Made by a program: the position numbers and the translations under genes. A stretch of 28,219 bases of DNA from a virus (lineage: Duplodnaviria > Caudoviricetes): positions 1 through 28,219 of IMG/VR virus record IMGVR_UViG_3300045902_000486. One strand, written 5' to 3'. The notes beneath the pieces are model-generated. The model was not told the origin of the DNA and did no database searches. It saw nothing but the letters and a program-made list of their open reading frames with translations. Shown one piece after another: positions 407 through 28,177 of this stretch. Each line of letters begins with the position of its first letter. Within the stretch, counting starts at the first letter, position 1.

Positions 407-979
407 ATGAGAAACTATTTTTCACTCCCACGCAAGCGCGGAATGGACAACATGGGTGGCATGGCAGTAGAAGTACTGTTTGCACCGCTTGATTATTTCG
501 CTGTAATTAAGAAACTGAAAACCACAACCGCACCTGGCGACAGTGTGACTATTGATGGTTCGCACACCTTTAAAGATGGCTATGGCTTTCATAAAGCATT
601 CGCCACTATTGAAAGTGTAAAGAAAATGCTGGAAAGCCAGGGCGAAATTGCCGGCCGTAGCAAGAAAGCTAAAGCTGAATTTTTCTACCCGGGTACATCA
701 AAGGCAGCTGCTGAGTTTGACCGTCAGGCGCAAAATGATGAGTTCATCTTTTTATTTAAAGACCCTAACACTGGCAAACGTTTGCAGCTGGGTAGCGAAG
801 ATTATCCCGCTATTGTAAGTGCAAACTATGATAGTGCCACACCGGCATCTGGCCGTAAAGGTTTTGCATTTACTGCAGAAGCTAACCAACTGGGTATGCA
901 GTTTTATGAGGGCGACATTGAACTAGCGCCTGAATATGGCAGCTCTGGTGCTGAAGATGAAAGCACTTACGTAGACTAG
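407..979 (+). CDS. Probable major tail (tube) protein
   Basis: 190 aa beta-rich protein resembling conserved Bacteroidota prophage structural proteins (NMGG…, FLFKD…G…LQLGSEDYPA); followed by a terminator; tube function is inferred. Confidence 0.55.
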   Translation: MRNYFSLPRKRGMDNMGGMAVEVLFAPLDYFAVIKKLKTTTAPGDSVTIDGSHTFKDGYGFHKAFATIESVKKMLESQGEIAGRSKKAKAEFFYPGTSKAAAEFDRQAQNDEFIFLFKDPNTGKRLQLGSEDYPAIVSANYDSATPASGRKGFAFTAEANQLGMQFYEGDIELAPEYGSSGAEDESTYVD

Positions 980-1049: not shown

Positions 1050-1057
1050 TATGTTTG
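1050..1057 (+). promoter_or_regulatory. Bacteroidota sigma-A -7 element
   Basis: TATGTTTG matches TAnnTTTG, directly upstream of a structured leader. Confidence 0.6.
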
Positions 1058-1100
1058 CATTGCTGTATTTCCCGATGATCCTGGTGTATTAAAATCATAC

Positions 1101-1169
1101 GTCAGGGTGGCCGTGTGGGTAACCTTCGGCATATTCTCCCATTGGGAAATACAGCACACCCTGACACCA
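1101..1169 (+). ncRNA. CI/C4-like antisense RNA candidate (three-way junction with 3' ACCA)
   Basis: 9-bp stalk GTCAGGGTG/CACCCTGAC followed by ACCA; GCCG…GG-GTAA-CC…CGGC stem-loop; TATT(C)TCCC-ATT-GGGAAATA stem-loop; 1140-1156 is complementary to the leader at 1061-1077. Confidence 0.6.
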
Positions 1170-1181
1170 TATTTTACGTGT

Positions 1182-1448
1182 ATGAGTACAACACCGGAAT
1201 CTGTTACATATGCCTATGAGCGCATAGTTGCTAGACATTTCATGCCTTGTTTTGATATTAAGGATAGTGATGAGCTGCTGAGTACTGAGCAGCTCAAGCA
1301 AATGTTTTTGAACATGGTGCCGGATTCGGAGCAAATAACCGATGCTGCTGTTTTTAATGAAATGGTGAAAGGCGGTTTTGAAATGTATAGCAAAGATGGC
1401 ATGAGCTTGTGGATGCTGCGCAAATCGAGTGTGTCCTTTAAAGGGTAA
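1182..1448 (+). CDS. Small hypothetical protein, possible winged-helix (88 aa)
   Basis: ATG at 1182 downstream of the structured RNA; LLSTEQLKQMF…VFNEMVKGGF pattern is wHTH-like; the ORF-track start at 1026 lies inside a terminator. Confidence 0.65.
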   Translation: MSTTPESVTYAYERIVARHFMPCFDIKDSDELLSTEQLKQMFLNMVPDSEQITDAAVFNEMVKGGFEMYSKDGMSLWMLRKSSVSFKG

Positions 1449-1914: not shown

Positions 1915-1950
1915 TGTCCTTTAATGGCAATTGCCACAGTGCGAAATTGC
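1915..1950 (+). promoter_or_regulatory. Putative phage late promoter, copy 2
   Basis: TGTCCTTTA-N18-CGAAATTGC, ATG at 1955. Confidence 0.6.
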
Positions 1951-1954
1951 AGGT

Positions 1955-2317
1955 ATGATTAATAACAGTGGCATTTGGGATGTAGAAGAGGCCAAGAAAG
2001 GTCATTTCCATTCATTAGAACTGGCTCGTAAGCTTGAAAGAGTTTTTACAAAGCGTATGCCGGTTCTCGATTTAGGTTGTGGTTTGGGTTTTTATGCTCA
2101 TCACTTATCAAGTAAGGGCTTTAGTGTTACTGCCTATGAAGGTACGGAGGGTATTCACGAAATTTCCATTTTTAAGCAAATCATTACACATGATTTGACT
2201 GAGCCACTACCAGACAGTATTAAGGGGCAGGTGTTGTGTATGGAGGTCGGTGAGCATATCCCTAAGGCTAATGAACAGCAGTTTATTGATAACATTACGG
2301 CTGTTGATAAGTTATGA
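1955..2317 (+). CDS. Class I SAM-dependent methyltransferase, apparently C-terminally truncated
   Basis: Motif I VLDLGCGLG, YEGT, HDLT and CMEVGEHIP; only ~120 aa, ending after FIDNIT; ATG 1955 preferred over TTG 1931. Confidence 0.8.
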   Translation: MINNSGIWDVEEAKKGHFHSLELARKLERVFTKRMPVLDLGCGLGFYAHHLSSKGFSVTAYEGTEGIHEISIFKQIITHDLTEPLPDSIKGQVLCMEVGEHIPKANEQQFIDNITAVDKL

Positions 2318-2940
2318 GCCTGCTAAAATTAGGTTTCGATAAAGTGTATTGCCTTAACCTTACGCGCAGATTGGATAGGCGTAAACATGCGGAGGCACAG
2401 TTTGAAAAAGTAAACCTAAAAGTTGATTTTTTCCCGGCAATAGATGCACGTGAGTTAGGCATAAAGTGCGATAACGAAAGATTGACATATGGTATGGTAG
2501 GATGCTACTTGAGCCATTATATGATACTGCAGGAAGCTTTACGAATGGGGTATGAAAGGATATTGATATTTGAGGATGACCTTACATTTATAACTGGTTT
2601 CAATGGCTTAATGAACCACGCAGTGCCTATTGTTCCTGATGATTGGGAATTCCTTTACTTAGGTTATAGCTACGCAAATGTGTATGAGAAGTATCGTAAA
2701 ACAGAAATTCCTGTTAATGAATATTGGGTTATTCCCGGTCACAATTGGGGCACGCAATGCTATGCTATAAATGGGCGAAATACTATTATTAAATTACTGG
2801 ATGGGCTGAAAAAAATAAATGACCAGGTAGATGTTCAACTCACATTTAAAGTGCTGAAACAGAAGTGTATTAAATTTTACGCTATTAAGCCCTGTGCTGT
2901 TGGTCAACTCAAAGACCGTTCTGATGTACAGACTAGATGA
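2314..2940 (+). CDS. Glycosyltransferase family 25
   Basis: YCLNLTRRLDRR, FPAID, GMVGCYLSH, ILIFEDD, LYLG and GTQCYAI motifs typical of GT25 (Lex2B/LgtB-like). Confidence 0.9.
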   Translation: MSLLKLGFDKVYCLNLTRRLDRRKHAEAQFEKVNLKVDFFPAIDARELGIKCDNERLTYGMVGCYLSHYMILQEALRMGYERILIFEDDLTFITGFNGLMNHAVPIVPDDWEFLYLGYSYANVYEKYRKTEIPVNEYWVIPGHNWGTQCYAINGRNTIIKLLDGLKKINDQVDVQLTFKVLKQKCIKFYAIKPCAVGQLKDRSDVQTR

Positions 2941-5990: not shown

Positions 5991-6052
5991 GGCGCATACC
6001 TTCGGTACCGGGCTTTACGCGCTACACGGTAGCTAGCTTCAATCCCTTGCGC
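5990..6052 (+). ncRNA. Flavo-1-like structured RNA or repeat element
   Basis: GGGCGCA…CGGGCTTT…GCTTCAATCCCTTGCGC resembles the Bacteroidota Flavo-1 motif as recalled; GCGCA/TGCGC, GGG/CCC and GCTAC/GTAGC pairings. Confidence 0.5.
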
Positions 6053-6054
6053 AC

Positions 6055-6445
6055 GCTTACCATTCAAAGCATACAATGCATTGAAAGGTAAGCTATAATG
6101 TGGATGAGTGCATTGTTACTCATGCACACATCCTTGTGTGGCATTAAGTCGCCTATTCTCTACGTTCATATGTTCGCACGCCTAAGGCAAAGCTCACTCA
6201 TTCACTCGTTCACATGCGACACAATGCCACACCGATATAGGCGTGAACACTTGTGCCAAGAGTTCACAATATAGGGGCGGCCTATGTGTATCCCACGCCA
6301 AACCAGCCACACATAGGGGCGCAGCCCGCAGGGCTGCCGTTTCAGATTTCGAAAAAAACGGAACGGAAATTCCATTTTTTTGGATAGGCGACGCGGTGAG
6401 AAGTTGACACTTGGTTGCAACCTTTTTCAAAAAAGGTGCAGCCAA
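6055..6445. repeat. Chain of inverted repeats in a non-coding tract
   Basis: Hairpins at 6055-6093 (GCTTACC…GGTAAGC), ATGAGT/ACTCAT, GTTCAC/GTGAAC, ATAGG/CCTAT, GCAGCCC/GGGCTGC and 6411-6445. Confidence 0.7.
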
Positions 6446-6596
6446 AAACCTAAAAAACAAATAATTGCATTTCAATCATTTGCAGCTGTAAATGCCATGA
6501 TATCAATATATTATAAATGTTTGATAATCAGATTAATAAAATTGAATAATTTAATACAAAATCAGCGTAAAGCCTTGTAAATACAAGGTGTTTGAC

Positions 6597-6604
6597 TATC
6601 TTTA
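6597..6604 (+). promoter_or_regulatory. Probable -7 promoter element (variant)
   Basis: TATCTTTA, one mismatch to TAnnTTTG, ~25 nt upstream of ATG 6629. Confidence 0.5.
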
Positions 6605-6628
6605 CAATGCCGTTAAAAATTTAACAAC

Positions 6629-7045
6629 ATGACAACAAAAAACAATGGCTCTGCAACTCAAGGAGTGGCAACCAAAACAGAAACAAAAACTGCACAAGTT
6701 GAAAAAAGCACAACTACCATTGCGCCTGATGGTGGAGCAGTTGAAGCAAAACTTGACAAAAGCAAAACGCAAGTTTTGACAGTTGCCGACCGCATCGCAC
6801 GGAATGAGCAATTAAACAGCCTTGTAGACAAACATGCTACTTACAAGGAAACCCAACAGAAAATTGAAAGCTTTGCCATTGGCAGTGATGAACACAGCCA
6901 AAGTTTGCAGTTAAAAGACAGCAAAGGCAACACATTCACAACCGCCCACCCTGCTATTTTAAAGCCTGTACTGGCTTTAATTCGTGAGCAGGTTAAACAA
7001 CAGGTCGGAGTTATCGAATCTGAAATTCTTGATTTTGTAATCTAA
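6629..7045 (+). CDS. Hypothetical protein (low-complexity T/K-rich N-terminus, helical C-terminus)
   Basis: 138 aa ORF with promoter and A-rich leader. Confidence 0.8.
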   Translation: MTTKNNGSATQGVATKTETKTAQVEKSTTTIAPDGGAVEAKLDKSKTQVLTVADRIARNEQLNSLVDKHATYKETQQKIESFAIGSDEHSQSLQLKDSKGNTFTTAHPAILKPVLALIREQVKQQVGVIESEILDFVI

Positions 7046-7052
7046 ACAGGCT

Positions 7053-7106
7053 AACAACACAACAGCCCGAAAGCATACGCAATCGGGCTGTATATGTGTT
7101 GTTTTT
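7053..7106 (+). terminator. Long intergenic hairpin (attenuator, terminator or RNase III site)
   Basis: AACAACACA-ACAGCCCGA…TCGGGCTGT-ATA-TGTGTTGTT followed by TTT. Confidence 0.6.
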
Positions 7107-7140
7107 AATGCCGTTAAAAACTAACAAGGGAGACAAAAAT

Positions 7141-7992
7141 ATGAATAACAGAGCATTTTTAAACAAACCGCTGCAAAATGATGATATATACATCAGTTCA
7201 GAGGTGCAGCCACTTGCAATAATTACCGGTATGCCGACCAGGAAAGGACTTGAAAAAGCCGTTATTTCTGCCGGTACTTTGGTAAATGTAGTTTCTAAAT
7301 CATACGCACATTTGCCGAATGAAAATTTCTTTCTTCATGCCGAAGAAGCTTTGATTAATGCGGAGATAAACTATAAAACCCGCAGTATTAACAGAGAAAA
7401 CCGCAGTTTTGCCGTTGATTATATTCTGGATGATGAAAACTACACGGTAACAGTGAAGAATGGCAAAGACAAAATAAAACCGATGTTGCGCTTTACTAAT
7501 TCCTATGATGGAAGCTGCCGAACTTCGGGCAGATTTGGCTTTTATCGTGAGGTTTGCAGTAATGGCTTACACGTTGCACATGCGCAAATCGGATTTTCTA
7601 TTAAACACAGGGGCGATATGTTGCGTGTGGTTATTCCTGAAATTCGGGCACTGGTTAATAAATTCATGGATAATGAATTTTATACGATAACCCGAAAATT
7701 TGAGAGAATGAGTGAAACCGAAATACACGACATCCCCGAAATTGTGAAAGGTATCGCAGAGCAGAGCGGACTTTTTAAGTTTGAGAAATCAGACCTAAAT
7801 CCCGACCCTTCATTAAATGCTCAACTTGTGATGCAGGTTATTGAGCGAGAGCAGGCACTACTTAACGAAGTGCCGAACAAGTGGCTTGTATATAATGCGT
7901 TCAATGAGTTGATACACGGCAAGTTGAAAATGACATTTGAAGCACAGCGAAAAGCAGACGCCAAAATTTTGCAACTGGTAGAAACCTACTAA
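7141..7992 (+). CDS. DUF932-family protein
   Basis: VNVVSKSYAHLPN and FTNSYDGS…FYREVCSNGL signatures; ATG 7141 preferred over 7096. Confidence 0.85.
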   Translation: MNNRAFLNKPLQNDDIYISSEVQPLAIITGMPTRKGLEKAVISAGTLVNVVSKSYAHLPNENFFLHAEEALINAEINYKTRSINRENRSFAVDYILDDENYTVTVKNGKDKIKPMLRFTNSYDGSCRTSGRFGFYREVCSNGLHVAHAQIGFSIKHRGDMLRVVIPEIRALVNKFMDNEFYTITRKFERMSETEIHDIPEIVKGIAEQSGLFKFEKSDLNPDPSLNAQLVMQVIEREQALLNEVPNKWLVYNAFNELIHGKLKMTFEAQRKADAKILQLVETY

Positions 7993-8014
7993 TATTTATA
8001 GGCTACCATATCGC

Positions 8015-8051
8015 AGGGCTATCCGTTTATACACGGGTAGCCCTTTTTTTT
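8015..8051 (+). terminator. Rho-independent terminator
   Basis: AGGGCTATCCGT-TTATAC-ACGGGTAGCCCT followed by a T run. Confidence 0.85.
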
Positions 8052-8055
8052 CGCG

Positions 8056-8082
8056 GCCACTTTCTTTTGAAAAGAAAGTGGC
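8056..8082. repeat. Perfect palindrome with 13-bp arms
   Basis: GCCACTTTCTTTT-G-AAAAGAAAGTGGC. Confidence 0.8.
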
Positions 8083-8148
8083 ATCAAAGAAAGTTTATGG
8101 CATTGTTGAGCGCAGGGGCGCGGGTGTCAGATTTATTTTATAAATGTA

Positions 8149-12198: not shown

Positions 12199-12379
12199 AC
12201 CACACGGATTGAAAGGCAAAGTAAATAACCCGGAAGGCAAGCCGTCAAAACATGGTCCAACGGAAATGGTCAGCAAAAGACTACCGGTTGACCTGATGGA
12301 GCGAGTCCGTTCACGCACTAGTAATGTTACCGAATTTATAAGACAGGCTCTCGAAGCCAAACTACAAAAGCCCGATTAA
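12191..12379 (+). CDS. Ribbon-helix-helix DNA-binding protein
   Basis: MVSKRLPVDLMERV…NVTEFIRQALEAKL fits the CopG/Arc RHH pattern. Confidence 0.75.
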   Translation: MNKPHGLKGKVNNPEGKPSKHGPTEMVSKRLPVDLMERVRSRTSNVTEFIRQALEAKLQKPD

Positions 12380-12391
12380 TCGGGCTTTTTT
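12366..12391 (+). terminator. Rho-independent terminator closing the accessory operon
   Basis: AAAAGCCCGATTAATCGGGCTTTTTT. Confidence 0.85.
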
Positions 12392-12393
12392 GT

Positions 12394-12429
12394 TGTCCTT
12401 TATAAGGAACCTTACCATACCGAAATTCG
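12394..12429 (+). promoter_or_regulatory. Putative phage late promoter, copy 3
   Basis: TGTCCTTTA-N18-CGAAATTCG, ATG at 12436. Confidence 0.6.
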
Positions 12430-18159: not shown

Positions 18160-19755
18160 ATGGCAGTAACAGTATTGGCACAACCTCAGCAGTTTGCGGC
18201 AATAAAAAACCCTATGGTTTTAAGGCTTGAAACCGATAATCATTGGGAAACAGCACCCGTAAAATCACGTTGGGGGTTCAGAGTAAATAATTTAAGTGGT
18301 CCGATTAATGATGATACCATTACGATCGGATACAATAACAACAGCTTTATTTTTGTTTTCAAAACAACCGTAACAGGCAGCGACCCCATTAATTGGATAC
18401 GAATTAAGGGCATATCAGAAAGCATAGTGGATTACCTAGAACATGTGGCTGAGCGAATAAGTAATATCATCACCGAATATGTTATAGAGTACTTTTATGA
18501 TCCAGATGATGATGTACATGGAATTAAAATACTTGCTAAAGAAGGTTCCGAAAAATGGAATTTAACACTAACATCTTCAGACGTAACAAAGCTTTCGAAC
18601 TGGAGCTTGTTACTTTTGAATTATACTGCAGGTGTTCAGAAAACTAATTATCGTCTGTTTTGCAGATTATTCGTAGAAGAAGAACCCGGAAGCACCATAT
18701 TTAAATTTGTGAAAGAACAGGATGCGCACGTTGATATCAATGGTATAGCTGAATTTCAGGTAAACAGATTGTTTGTGTTTGACAATAGCTATGCACCATC
18801 TAATGAGGTCGTAAGCGATTATCCATGCATATACAGATATTATTTGCAGTGGGGCGAAAAGTATGGAGAGGATATTGTTTGGTATGCCACCGGCAGCGGT
18901 AGTAGCAGCAATTATAAGATTGCATTAAATGGTGGATTTTCAACCGAAGTATTCCCTCAATTAATTGATATATACACCGAACAACTTAGCGGGGAAGGGC
19001 ATAAGCTGCTTAATGTCTTACCTCGTATTATGGTTATAAACAAACATTGCCCTATATGGTTATATTATTTCCTTGCCTCGGTAGATGAGGATTTGTTGTC
19101 AGTTGAGATAACAGCATATTATGAAGATGAAATTTCGCCACAATTAGTAAGTTTTTCTGCCGGGAGTGCAGGTGCTCATACAGTTACCGCCATTGCCGTT
19201 GGGCCATCGCAGATATCCGAAAACATGGAGATTTCACTATTAACACATTACTCAGTAAAGATTACTCGTAATACTGATTCACAAAGTAGTGAGTCGTTTC
19301 TTTTTATAATCAGCGAAGTGCAACACGAATTTAATCGCTATTTTATATACAAAAACAGCCTTGGTACTTACGATACACTATGGTGTAGCGGTGAAGCTAA
19401 ATCACGAACAATTCATGAATTTGAAGAAGCTAAAATTATGCTGCCGGCAAATTATACAGCATCCGATCGTGAAATATTAAACTACAACAAAACATACTCA
19501 AAAGACGTTGATGTGCCGGTAGGCGTTAATTCACGCGATTTACGCTTTGACCCACAGCAGTGGGCGCAATGCCTTAGCGATTTACTGAATAGTGATGATG
19601 TTTTCGAAGTTATTGGTGATCAGCTTTTACCCATAGTTGTATTAAATAAAGCTGTTGAATTGCCTACTGATGCACAGTCTATTGTAAATTTCGACCTAAA
19701 GTATAAATACGCACATACACACTCATCTTTTACCCCTAAATGGCTGTATGAATAA
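18160..19755 (+). CDS. Tail structural protein (distal-tail-like)
   Basis: 531 aa beta-rich protein with C-terminal YFIYKNSLGTYDTL…DLLNSDDVF pattern. Confidence 0.6.
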   Translation: MAVTVLAQPQQFAAIKNPMVLRLETDNHWETAPVKSRWGFRVNNLSGPINDDTITIGYNNNSFIFVFKTTVTGSDPINWIRIKGISESIVDYLEHVAERISNIITEYVIEYFYDPDDDVHGIKILAKEGSEKWNLTLTSSDVTKLSNWSLLLLNYTAGVQKTNYRLFCRLFVEEEPGSTIFKFVKEQDAHVDINGIAEFQVNRLFVFDNSYAPSNEVVSDYPCIYRYYLQWGEKYGEDIVWYATGSGSSSNYKIALNGGFSTEVFPQLIDIYTEQLSGEGHKLLNVLPRIMVINKHCPIWLYYFLASVDEDLLSVEITAYYEDEISPQLVSFSAGSAGAHTVTAIAVGPSQISENMEISLLTHYSVKITRNTDSQSSESFLFIISEVQHEFNRYFIYKNSLGTYDTLWCSGEAKSRTIHEFEEAKIMLPANYTASDREILNYNKTYSKDVDVPVGVNSRDLRFDPQQWAQCLSDLLNSDDVFEVIGDQLLPIVVLNKAVELPTDAQSIVNFDLKYKYAHTHSSFTPKWLYE

Positions 19756-28103: not shown

Positions 28104-28177
28104 TGGTCCCGACAGGATTCAAACCTGTAACCTTCTGATCCGTAGTCAGATGCTCTATTCAGTTGAGCTACGGAACC
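28104..28177 (-). tRNA. tRNA-Arg(ACG), probable prophage attachment site; CCA not encoded
   Basis: Reverse complement GGTTCCGTAGCTCAACTGAATAGAGCATCTGACTACGGATCAGAAGGTTACAGGTTTGAATCCTGTCGGGACCA folds into a cloverleaf with anticodon ACG. Confidence 0.97.

Follow-up and report, generated by a model that had tools for sequence, protein, structure and literature searches.

Is a small gene lodged among the virion genes of a Bacteroidota phage governed by an antisense RNA of the kind that phages P4 and P1 make? The question is raised by a non-coding stretch in IMG/VR virus record IMGVR_UViG_3300045902_000486 (Duplodnaviria; Caudoviricetes), of which positions 1 to 28,219 constitute the window (the whole stretch of DNA that was analyzed, 28,219 nt), and by an earlier, sequence-only reading that saw in it a CI/C4-like RNA switch. 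P4 CI RNA is built of a stalk, two stem-loops and a bulge, and is matured by RNase P; P4 kil and P1 icd are precedents for the genes that stand under such RNAs.

The window is a single virus record with an integrase gene beside a tRNA gene, a tape measure gene and an amidase gene; a longer, 36.5-kb record of the same phage adds a 341-aa probable capsid gene upstream (its function assigned by position). (The tRNA, anticodon ACG, lies at 28104-28177 on the minus strand and is a likely attachment site.) Upstream of the locus in question is a 190-aa virion-module gene (407-979, plus strand; phrog_19897, annotated "unknown", E 0.0017), which is tail-tube-like by position only. Its named relatives come from Hymenobacter and Adhaeribacter (~45%), and through it the Polaribacter phage Leef_1 is a distant relative (35%); together these support assignment of the phage to the Bacteroidota.

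The cassette is bounded by terminator-like hairpins, the first of which (1011-1040, predicted) ends the upstream operon, the second lying at 1886-1911. All its parts are on the plus strand. The leader opens with a box of the form TAnnTTTG (TATGTTTG, 1050-1057), which we take to be the Bacteroidota -7-type promoter consensus and which would place the start of transcription near 1061-1063; by itself the box is weak evidence, there being 22 TAnnTTTG matches in the window. Then come a target, or "address" (1061-1077), a relay strand (1078-1100) and a 69-nt element (1101-1169), in the predicted fold of which a stalk (1101-1109/1157-1165) encloses a stem-loop P2 (1110-1130), a second, P3 (1137-1147), and a bulge (1148-1156). 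The antisense segment (1140-1156, drawn from P3 and the bulge) is complementary to the address over 17 bp with one G-U pair. Box, address, element and complementarity thus lie where the sequence-only reading had put them. No other long-range helix in the 28-kb window is as long as this one of 17 bp (the next has 13 bp), and in five local shuffles the longest was at most 12 bp.

What does such an RNA fold into? Taken alone, 1101-1169 has a minimum free energy (MFE) structure of -29.2 kcal/mol with a 9-bp stalk, an inner hairpin capped by a GUAA (GNRA) loop, a second hairpin, a 9-nt bulge and an unpaired 3' ACCA (z -3.4; 2 of 200 shuffles were equally good), as had been claimed; six of the last eight nucleotides of the antisense segment are predicted to be unpaired in the free RNA. 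The MFE structure of the full leader (1055-1185) differs: 1061-1077 is paired with 1140-1156, and a rival hairpin, 1078-1089/1097-1108, captures the 5' strand of the stalk (z -4.1; 0 of 200 shuffles), bearing out the competing hairpin that the sequence-only reading had proposed. Absent from that reading is a further pairing, which is predicted to cover the start codon in the state that has the stalk. According to the predictions, the relay strand has two partners: the 5' strand of the stalk if the leader helix forms, and the start-codon region (1180-1197) if the leader is blocked. With the leader blocked in silico, the freed 1081-1100 pairs with 1180-1197 and the probability that the AUG is unpaired is 0.01, versus 0.17-0.36 in one calculation and 0.46 in another. 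The relay duplex scores -15.5 against a shuffled mean of -6.6 (p 0.002).

Some other readings of the leader were discarded. A 5-codon mini-ORF at 1075-1092 was rejected, its ATG being missing in lake variants of the sequence (described below), and an intrinsic terminator at the stalk is unlikely, with 2-6 U among the next 8 nt. Beyond its two known exact sites the antisense segment has no exact match in the 36.5-kb phage record, and at up to two mismatches there are 12 matches in that record against 14 for a control. The best extra match (-20.9 kcal/mol), at approximately 18240-18259 on the minus strand and antisense to a 531-aa gene, is probably due to chance.

Related loci (designated by L numbers) show how far the design extends. 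Tracking of neighboring genes yielded L033, L044, L052, L116 and L070. A scan for promoter, helix, stalk and ORF in series, run over 78 terminase-linked loci (1.0 Mb), gave seven matches, versus none in a shuffled 1.0 Mb: this phage, two loci with a homologue of the ORF, L075 with an unrelated gene, and three that were discounted on inspection by eye. Seven ORFs were then made into a profile, which picked seven new loci by protein alone from overlapping samples of 15, 5, 401 and 301 genomes. A complete leader is present in five of these; of the two leaderless loci one, situated within an operon, is the weakest match (E 7e-4) and the other has a broken gene. (L149, in G518:C14, has a broken copy of the small gene behind a promoter box without an intact leader helix, which suggests decay of the cassette.) L071, L099 and L140, which are matches to the architecture, and likewise L027 and L053, were put down to chance by eye and stand outside the count of 11 that follows.

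In all, the layout is present in 11 of 13 loci with a homologue of the ORF: a TAnnTTTN box, a leader helix of 10-19 bp, a stalk of 7-12 bp and an ATG 106-144 nt from the box, which lies 10-13 nt ahead of the leader helix in every one of the 11. The observed lengths of leader and stalk helices were reached by none of 60 shuffles in each locus. The stalk units measure 69-83 nt, their inner hairpins varying in number and shape in the predicted folds, and G is among the first two stalk bases in nine of the 11. Ten of the loci directly follow a homologue of the 190-aa gene and one (L070) follows terminase, so that the position inside the late structural region, which the sequence-only reading had called unusual, is the usual one.

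The leaders are 36-59% identical to that of the window; because three related pairs (57-71%) are found among them, the 11 loci represent about eight lineages. It is in these pairs that the covariation asked of homologous leaders is seen. The leader helices of L033 and L116 differ by six both-sided and three one-sided changes in 19 pairs, and those of L052 and L146 by one both-sided and two one-sided changes in 13 pairs. A comparison of L148 with L150 (six both-sided changes of 10) was not counted as covariation; its register is uncertain. On these comparisons of sequence, the conserved, covarying two-state leader RNA is real.

Other searches mark out how the family is distributed. Six more loci with the 190-aa gene have no leader combining a 13-bp helix with a 7-bp stalk. 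A DNA pattern of the RNA scaffold, applied to IMG/VR, found 14 stretches, only this phage being real, and a second found five, with only this phage and L033 real. ORF-based scans returned only this phage from viral contigs and nothing from GTDB genomes or cultured phages; the sole match of the ORF-based metagenome scan (L018) is false and lies opposite to a Flavobacterium-like housekeeping gene. From 401 genomes the first profile recovered its own seed genome and, besides that, a single weak, stop-ridden match, and a covariance model made from a single sequence recovered no homologues. Separately, in a related phage of high GC content, L075 (13780-14170), a similar promoter-leader-stalk layout stands before a 69-aa ORF that is unrelated to the 88-aa gene, so that other kinds of gene may be under the control of this design.

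A closer comparison is offered by relatives in lake-type metagenomes. In all six runs compared, out of eight that contain a small share of the sequence, 1097-1175 is kept with 3 differing letters of 79, and outside it likeness drops below 80%; no RNA run turned up among the sequencing runs with this element. Two close relatives of the 88-aa protein encoded behind the leader, with ORF starts matched in the lake contigs, are 64-66% identical to it, so that the RNA core (76/79 nt) is conserved far beyond the protein. Changes in paired positions were read by eye from the 30-letter loose ends of the matches. So read, the commoner lake variant replaces A with T at 1141 and, in compensation, T with A at the leader partner, 1076; two more leader pairs are kept through one-sided changes and the last pair is lost. 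The same variant changes 1084 from G to A and 1194 from C to T, turning a G-C into an A-U pair of the relay helix and a proline codon into serine; its 6-bp helix on the AUG itself appears shortened. The rarer (P0004-type) variant has mismatches at 1076/1141 and 1084/1194 and keeps the rest of both helices. One of the two protein relatives begins at the same position as the ORF at 1182, which supports that start; the other carries an N-terminal extension. Two longer gene calls were rejected as over-extended: a 140-aa reading from 1026 (P0002) and the 103-aa start of P0004, whose extension equals the window's RNA element read in a frame that there is out of phase.

Does the family switch as the window is predicted to? 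Blocking the leader in silico raises the probability of the stalk from 0.0 to 0.64-0.99 in 10 of the 11 loci; in L150 the stalk is present with or without blocking. In the free unit four to six of the last eight antisense bases are exposed in 10 of 11 loci, and binding in trans is predicted to be favorable even against the finished cis fold, also in 10 of 11 (-11.2 kcal/mol in the window). The cis partner of the leader is complete only 80-107 nt later, a delay that opens a kinetic window; in the nascent RNA of the window itself, however, the leader is only 0.4 unpaired. The addresses are predicted to be orthogonal, own pairings scoring -23.2 versus -5.1 for those of other loci (the own values are partly circular).

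What the stalk does to the gene appears to vary. Relay and start-region sequences pair better with their own partners (-7.6) than with others (-4.6; permutation p 5e-5, the loci not being independent), and the mean openness of -10 to +12 drops in nine of the 11 loci, but the change is slight or absent in the window, L147, L148 and L150. Strong closing of the AUG, from 0.38-0.64 to ~0.01 unpaired, is confined to the window, L116 and L044; the start region of L151 closes from 0.62 to 0.17, and blocking leaves the AUG of L146, L147 and L148 at least as open as before. The relay clamp is better than its own shuffles in only four of 11 loci (the window, L044, L146 and L151), the significant pairing in L146 falling downstream of the AUG, and it is therefore not how every locus responds; elsewhere the stalk may act by setting off termination or cleavage. 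A second antisense target downstream, the start codon included, of the kind represented by seqC or a2b2 in P4 and C4, was looked for and not found in these loci (own -8.6 versus other -8.4, p 0.40; the window, at -6.0, ranks 9 of 11).

The gene behind the leader (1182-1448) encodes an 88-aa protein that has no Pfam, PHROG or PDB (solved-structure) sequence family and no match to a toxin, Icd or an antirepressor. Its structure model, built on a six-row alignment (pLDDT 84.8), has helices at 8-17, 35-45 and 54-63 and a hairpin at 68-81; the best structural matches, RFX5 (Z 6.6; 75 residues at rmsd 3.3) and Fur (Z 6.0), are winged-helix domains and fall below the decisive range, and the Foldseek rows are weak (E 0.039 or worse). 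The model is suggestive of a winged-helix-like fold. The Atlas name "5-formyltetrahydrofolate cyclo-ligase" (score 0.92) is an automatic label on mostly viral clusters of 83-94 aa and was not taken as function.

The window differs from the other loci in having, after the 88-aa gene, a 123-aa ORF with a hydrophobic N-terminus (1497-1868, from the ORF list), a second cassette gene in this lineage only, and an added terminator. The ORF has no homologue among loci L001-L065 besides this phage and no usable Atlas match; part of it (1515-1577) is also found in lake-type contigs, followed by the same terminator. Behind the second bounding hairpin stands a TGTCCTT motif (hairpin and motif spanning 1886-1921), putatively a late promoter element of this phage group; terminator and motif occur in two copies in the window, at 1887-1923 and 12366-12402. 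In most related phages the operon that follows is headed by this motif, TGTCCTT, a candidate phage-specific late promoter. In eight of the 10 other loci the small ORF stops 2-11 nt short of a GTCCTT/TGTCTT motif, and by eye no hairpin intervenes. Relatives free of the cassette typically lead from the terminator straight into GTCCTT and then into the next operon (by eye), and there too we infer the motif to be a late promoter element. The cassette, present at the site in one of 19 related viral loci and two of 10 GTDB loci, is an optional insert between terminator and putative late promoter.

Some observations on the neighborhood may be added. The methyltransferase ORF, of 128 aa in the window (1931-2317), reaches 192 aa in the longer phage record (L001:3750-4328), by deletion or as a difference in assembly. 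A family 25 glycosyltransferase-like gene follows the cassette both in the window (2314-2940) and in L044 (6169-6780). After the terminase gene, at 5991-8100, comes a non-coding stretch with inverted repeats, followed by two genes, a 138-aa ORF and one of the DUF932 family, with a 38-nt repeat (6601-6638 and 7102-7139) common to their leaders; this looks like a second insert.

What, then, is the cassette? Probably a P4-CI-like, self-made antisense switch on the winged-helix-like gene, with repression in trans as its most likely mode; that the RNA is processed, that it acts in trans and which sign its control has are what we infer from the analysis. That one layout is kept with entirely different pairing sequences in ten related phages makes a lock operated by a self-made antisense RNA likely. 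The promoter would make the leader RNA and a nuclease (by analogy, RNase P) would cut the 69-nt folded RNA from it. In the transcript by itself (state A) the leader would be paired with the antisense segment, the stalk absent and the start region more open. The small RNA would bind the 5' end of new transcripts through its unpaired bulge, with the 80-107 nt up to the competing cis partner still being transcribed; with the leader so occupied (state B) the stalk would form, and in the window the freed relay strand would pair over the AUG and the codons next to it, shutting off the gene. Since leader binding creates the stalk, the small RNA would also promote production of more of itself. State A is more stable than state B by 7-12 kcal/mol in most loci, so that the first RNA molecules would need a further route. 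The gene would be on only as a pulse in a cell without the matching RNA and off in a lysogen, and related phages with different addresses would be insensitive to each other's RNA. A more ambitious extension is less likely than not: Leef_1-like Bacteroidota phages might carry self-amplifying, address-coded RNA locks with a single target and a relay strand, in which the small RNA frees the stalk and so catalyzes its own maturation, and which gate a winged-helix regulator together with read-through into the packaging operon, giving each lineage a private channel of immunity or timing at the late-gene junction.

Need the RNA be cut free at all? Every pairing in question is available in cis, and one can picture a leader that releases no small RNA, its choice between states A and B being made by a protein (possibly the winged-helix product), by decay of the 5' end or by pausing of RNA polymerase. 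The variable 3' CCA would suit such a leader, as would the appearance, among the weak Foldseek rows, of the RNA-binding ROQ winged-helix domain (E 0.07). We regard it as unlikely: from one lineage to the next the sequences of leader and antisense segment change completely within a constant layout, a pattern better matched to specificity between RNAs than to a site for a protein, the compact stalk unit with its exposed antisense end recurs, and in the lake relatives only that unit is near-invariant. Chance inverted repeats, or an element acting at the level of DNA without any RNA role, are scarcely credible in the face of the G-U pairs, the compensatory changes, the fixed spacing from the promoter box and the shuffles of the 11 loci and of the 1.0 Mb, none of which reproduced the pattern.

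If the antisense switch is granted, its purpose need not be control of lysogeny. The same RNA mechanism could serve addiction or killing, the small RNA as antitoxin and the winged-helix protein as a toxin like Kil or Icd, stabilizing the prophage or aborting competitors; kil and icd are themselves precedents, and the cassette is optional, bounded by terminators and found at a second site in L070. Yet no toxin family is matched, the predicted fold resembles nucleic-acid-binding domains, and the closeness of the ORF's end to the GTCCTT/TGTCTT motif suggests coupling to the downstream phage genes, all of which makes such a module rather improbable. Might the sign be reversed, the small RNA turning the gene on, or cleavage at the stalk freeing a translatable 3' mRNA? 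IsrK of Gifsy-1 opens a ribosome site in trans in a P4-like leader (PMC4825925); cleavage at 1101 would take the relay strand away, and the AUGs of L146, L147 and L148 that stay open on blocking would be compatible with activation. The closing of the AUG in the window, L116 and L044, and of the start region in L151, runs the other way, and we consider activation quite improbable.

If the self-made antisense lock is what the cassette provides, CI/C4-type immunity RNAs, which have been characterized in phages of Proteobacteria, would have a counterpart in Bacteroidota phages that is unrelated in sequence. The natural address pairs of the eleven loci would offer Bacteroidota genetics a collection of RNA switches, already at hand and predicted to be orthogonal, and they make RNA-based heteroimmunity of phages directly testable. 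A literature search found no such RNA described in Bacteroidota phages; subscription papers and supplementary motif lists, largely outside that search, may hold similar motifs.

How close is the likeness to the known systems? The window RNA would work like P4 CI and P1 C4 and is not a member of their family. The Infernal check that the sequence-only reading had called for gave no match in the window to the Rfam models C4 (RF01695), c4-2 (RF02944) and c4-a1b1 (RF03163) at E<=10, and 10 homologous loci (67,739 bases) have no match to the C4 families at the gathering threshold. What stands of the original claim is a conserved leader with two predicted states, one of them paired to the RNA's 5' end, that precedes a predicted winged-helix-like gene in a phage of Bacteroidota type; membership of the Rfam C4 families and a second target are not supported. 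The traits in common are a unit of ~70-80 nt with a closing stalk, inner stem-loops and a single-stranded antisense part, present in the predicted folds of all 11 loci, and a complementary site upstream in the RNA's own leader, corresponding to seqA or a1b1. The RCCA anchor of RNase P is described in PMC11143913; ACCA follows the stalk in only two of the 11 loci (the window and L150), so that cutting by RNase P rests on analogy, and a GNRA loop is seen by MFE in four, neither being the family-wide feature that had been supposed.

P4 CI is a processed leader RNA that pairs with seqA and seqC (PMC4825925); as is proposed for the window RNA, it is a small RNA from its own untranslated leader that pairs with an upstream complementary site. 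The window RNA differs in lacking a seqC-like downstream target and any sequence match, and its shut-off is predicted to come about through the relay strand or through formation of the stalk rather than at a second antisense site; the host phylum is Bacteroidota, and the cassette sits in the virion region, not in a replication operon. C4 RNA is ~77 nt long with three stems (P1-P3), is cut by RNase P from a longer transcript and has a variable specificity loop that separates phages (PMC5320573); C4 is listed for Proteobacteria and phages in Weinberg 2010 (PMC2864571). Whereas C4 of P1 and P7 applies two short loops to a1b1 and a2b2, the window family uses one contiguous pairing of 10-19 nt, and the downstream gene is winged-helix-like (predicted), with no match to Icd or an antirepressor and none of the RNA to the covariance models. 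The IsrK/orf45-anrP leader of Gifsy-1 (PMC4825925) has in common with the proposal made here two alternative folds, a self-encoded RNA acting in trans and control at the start codon; IsrK activates and is the 5' piece of its leader, whereas the candidate small RNA proposed here is the internal stalk unit, with a predicted repressive effect. If our reading is right, the CI/C4 design is a general one that needs neither a second target nor a conserved CCA, and what the Bacteroidota version adds to it is a single target, addresses that can be exchanged, a constant position ahead of the packaging operon and, in part of the family, a start codon predicted to be clamped by the relay strand.
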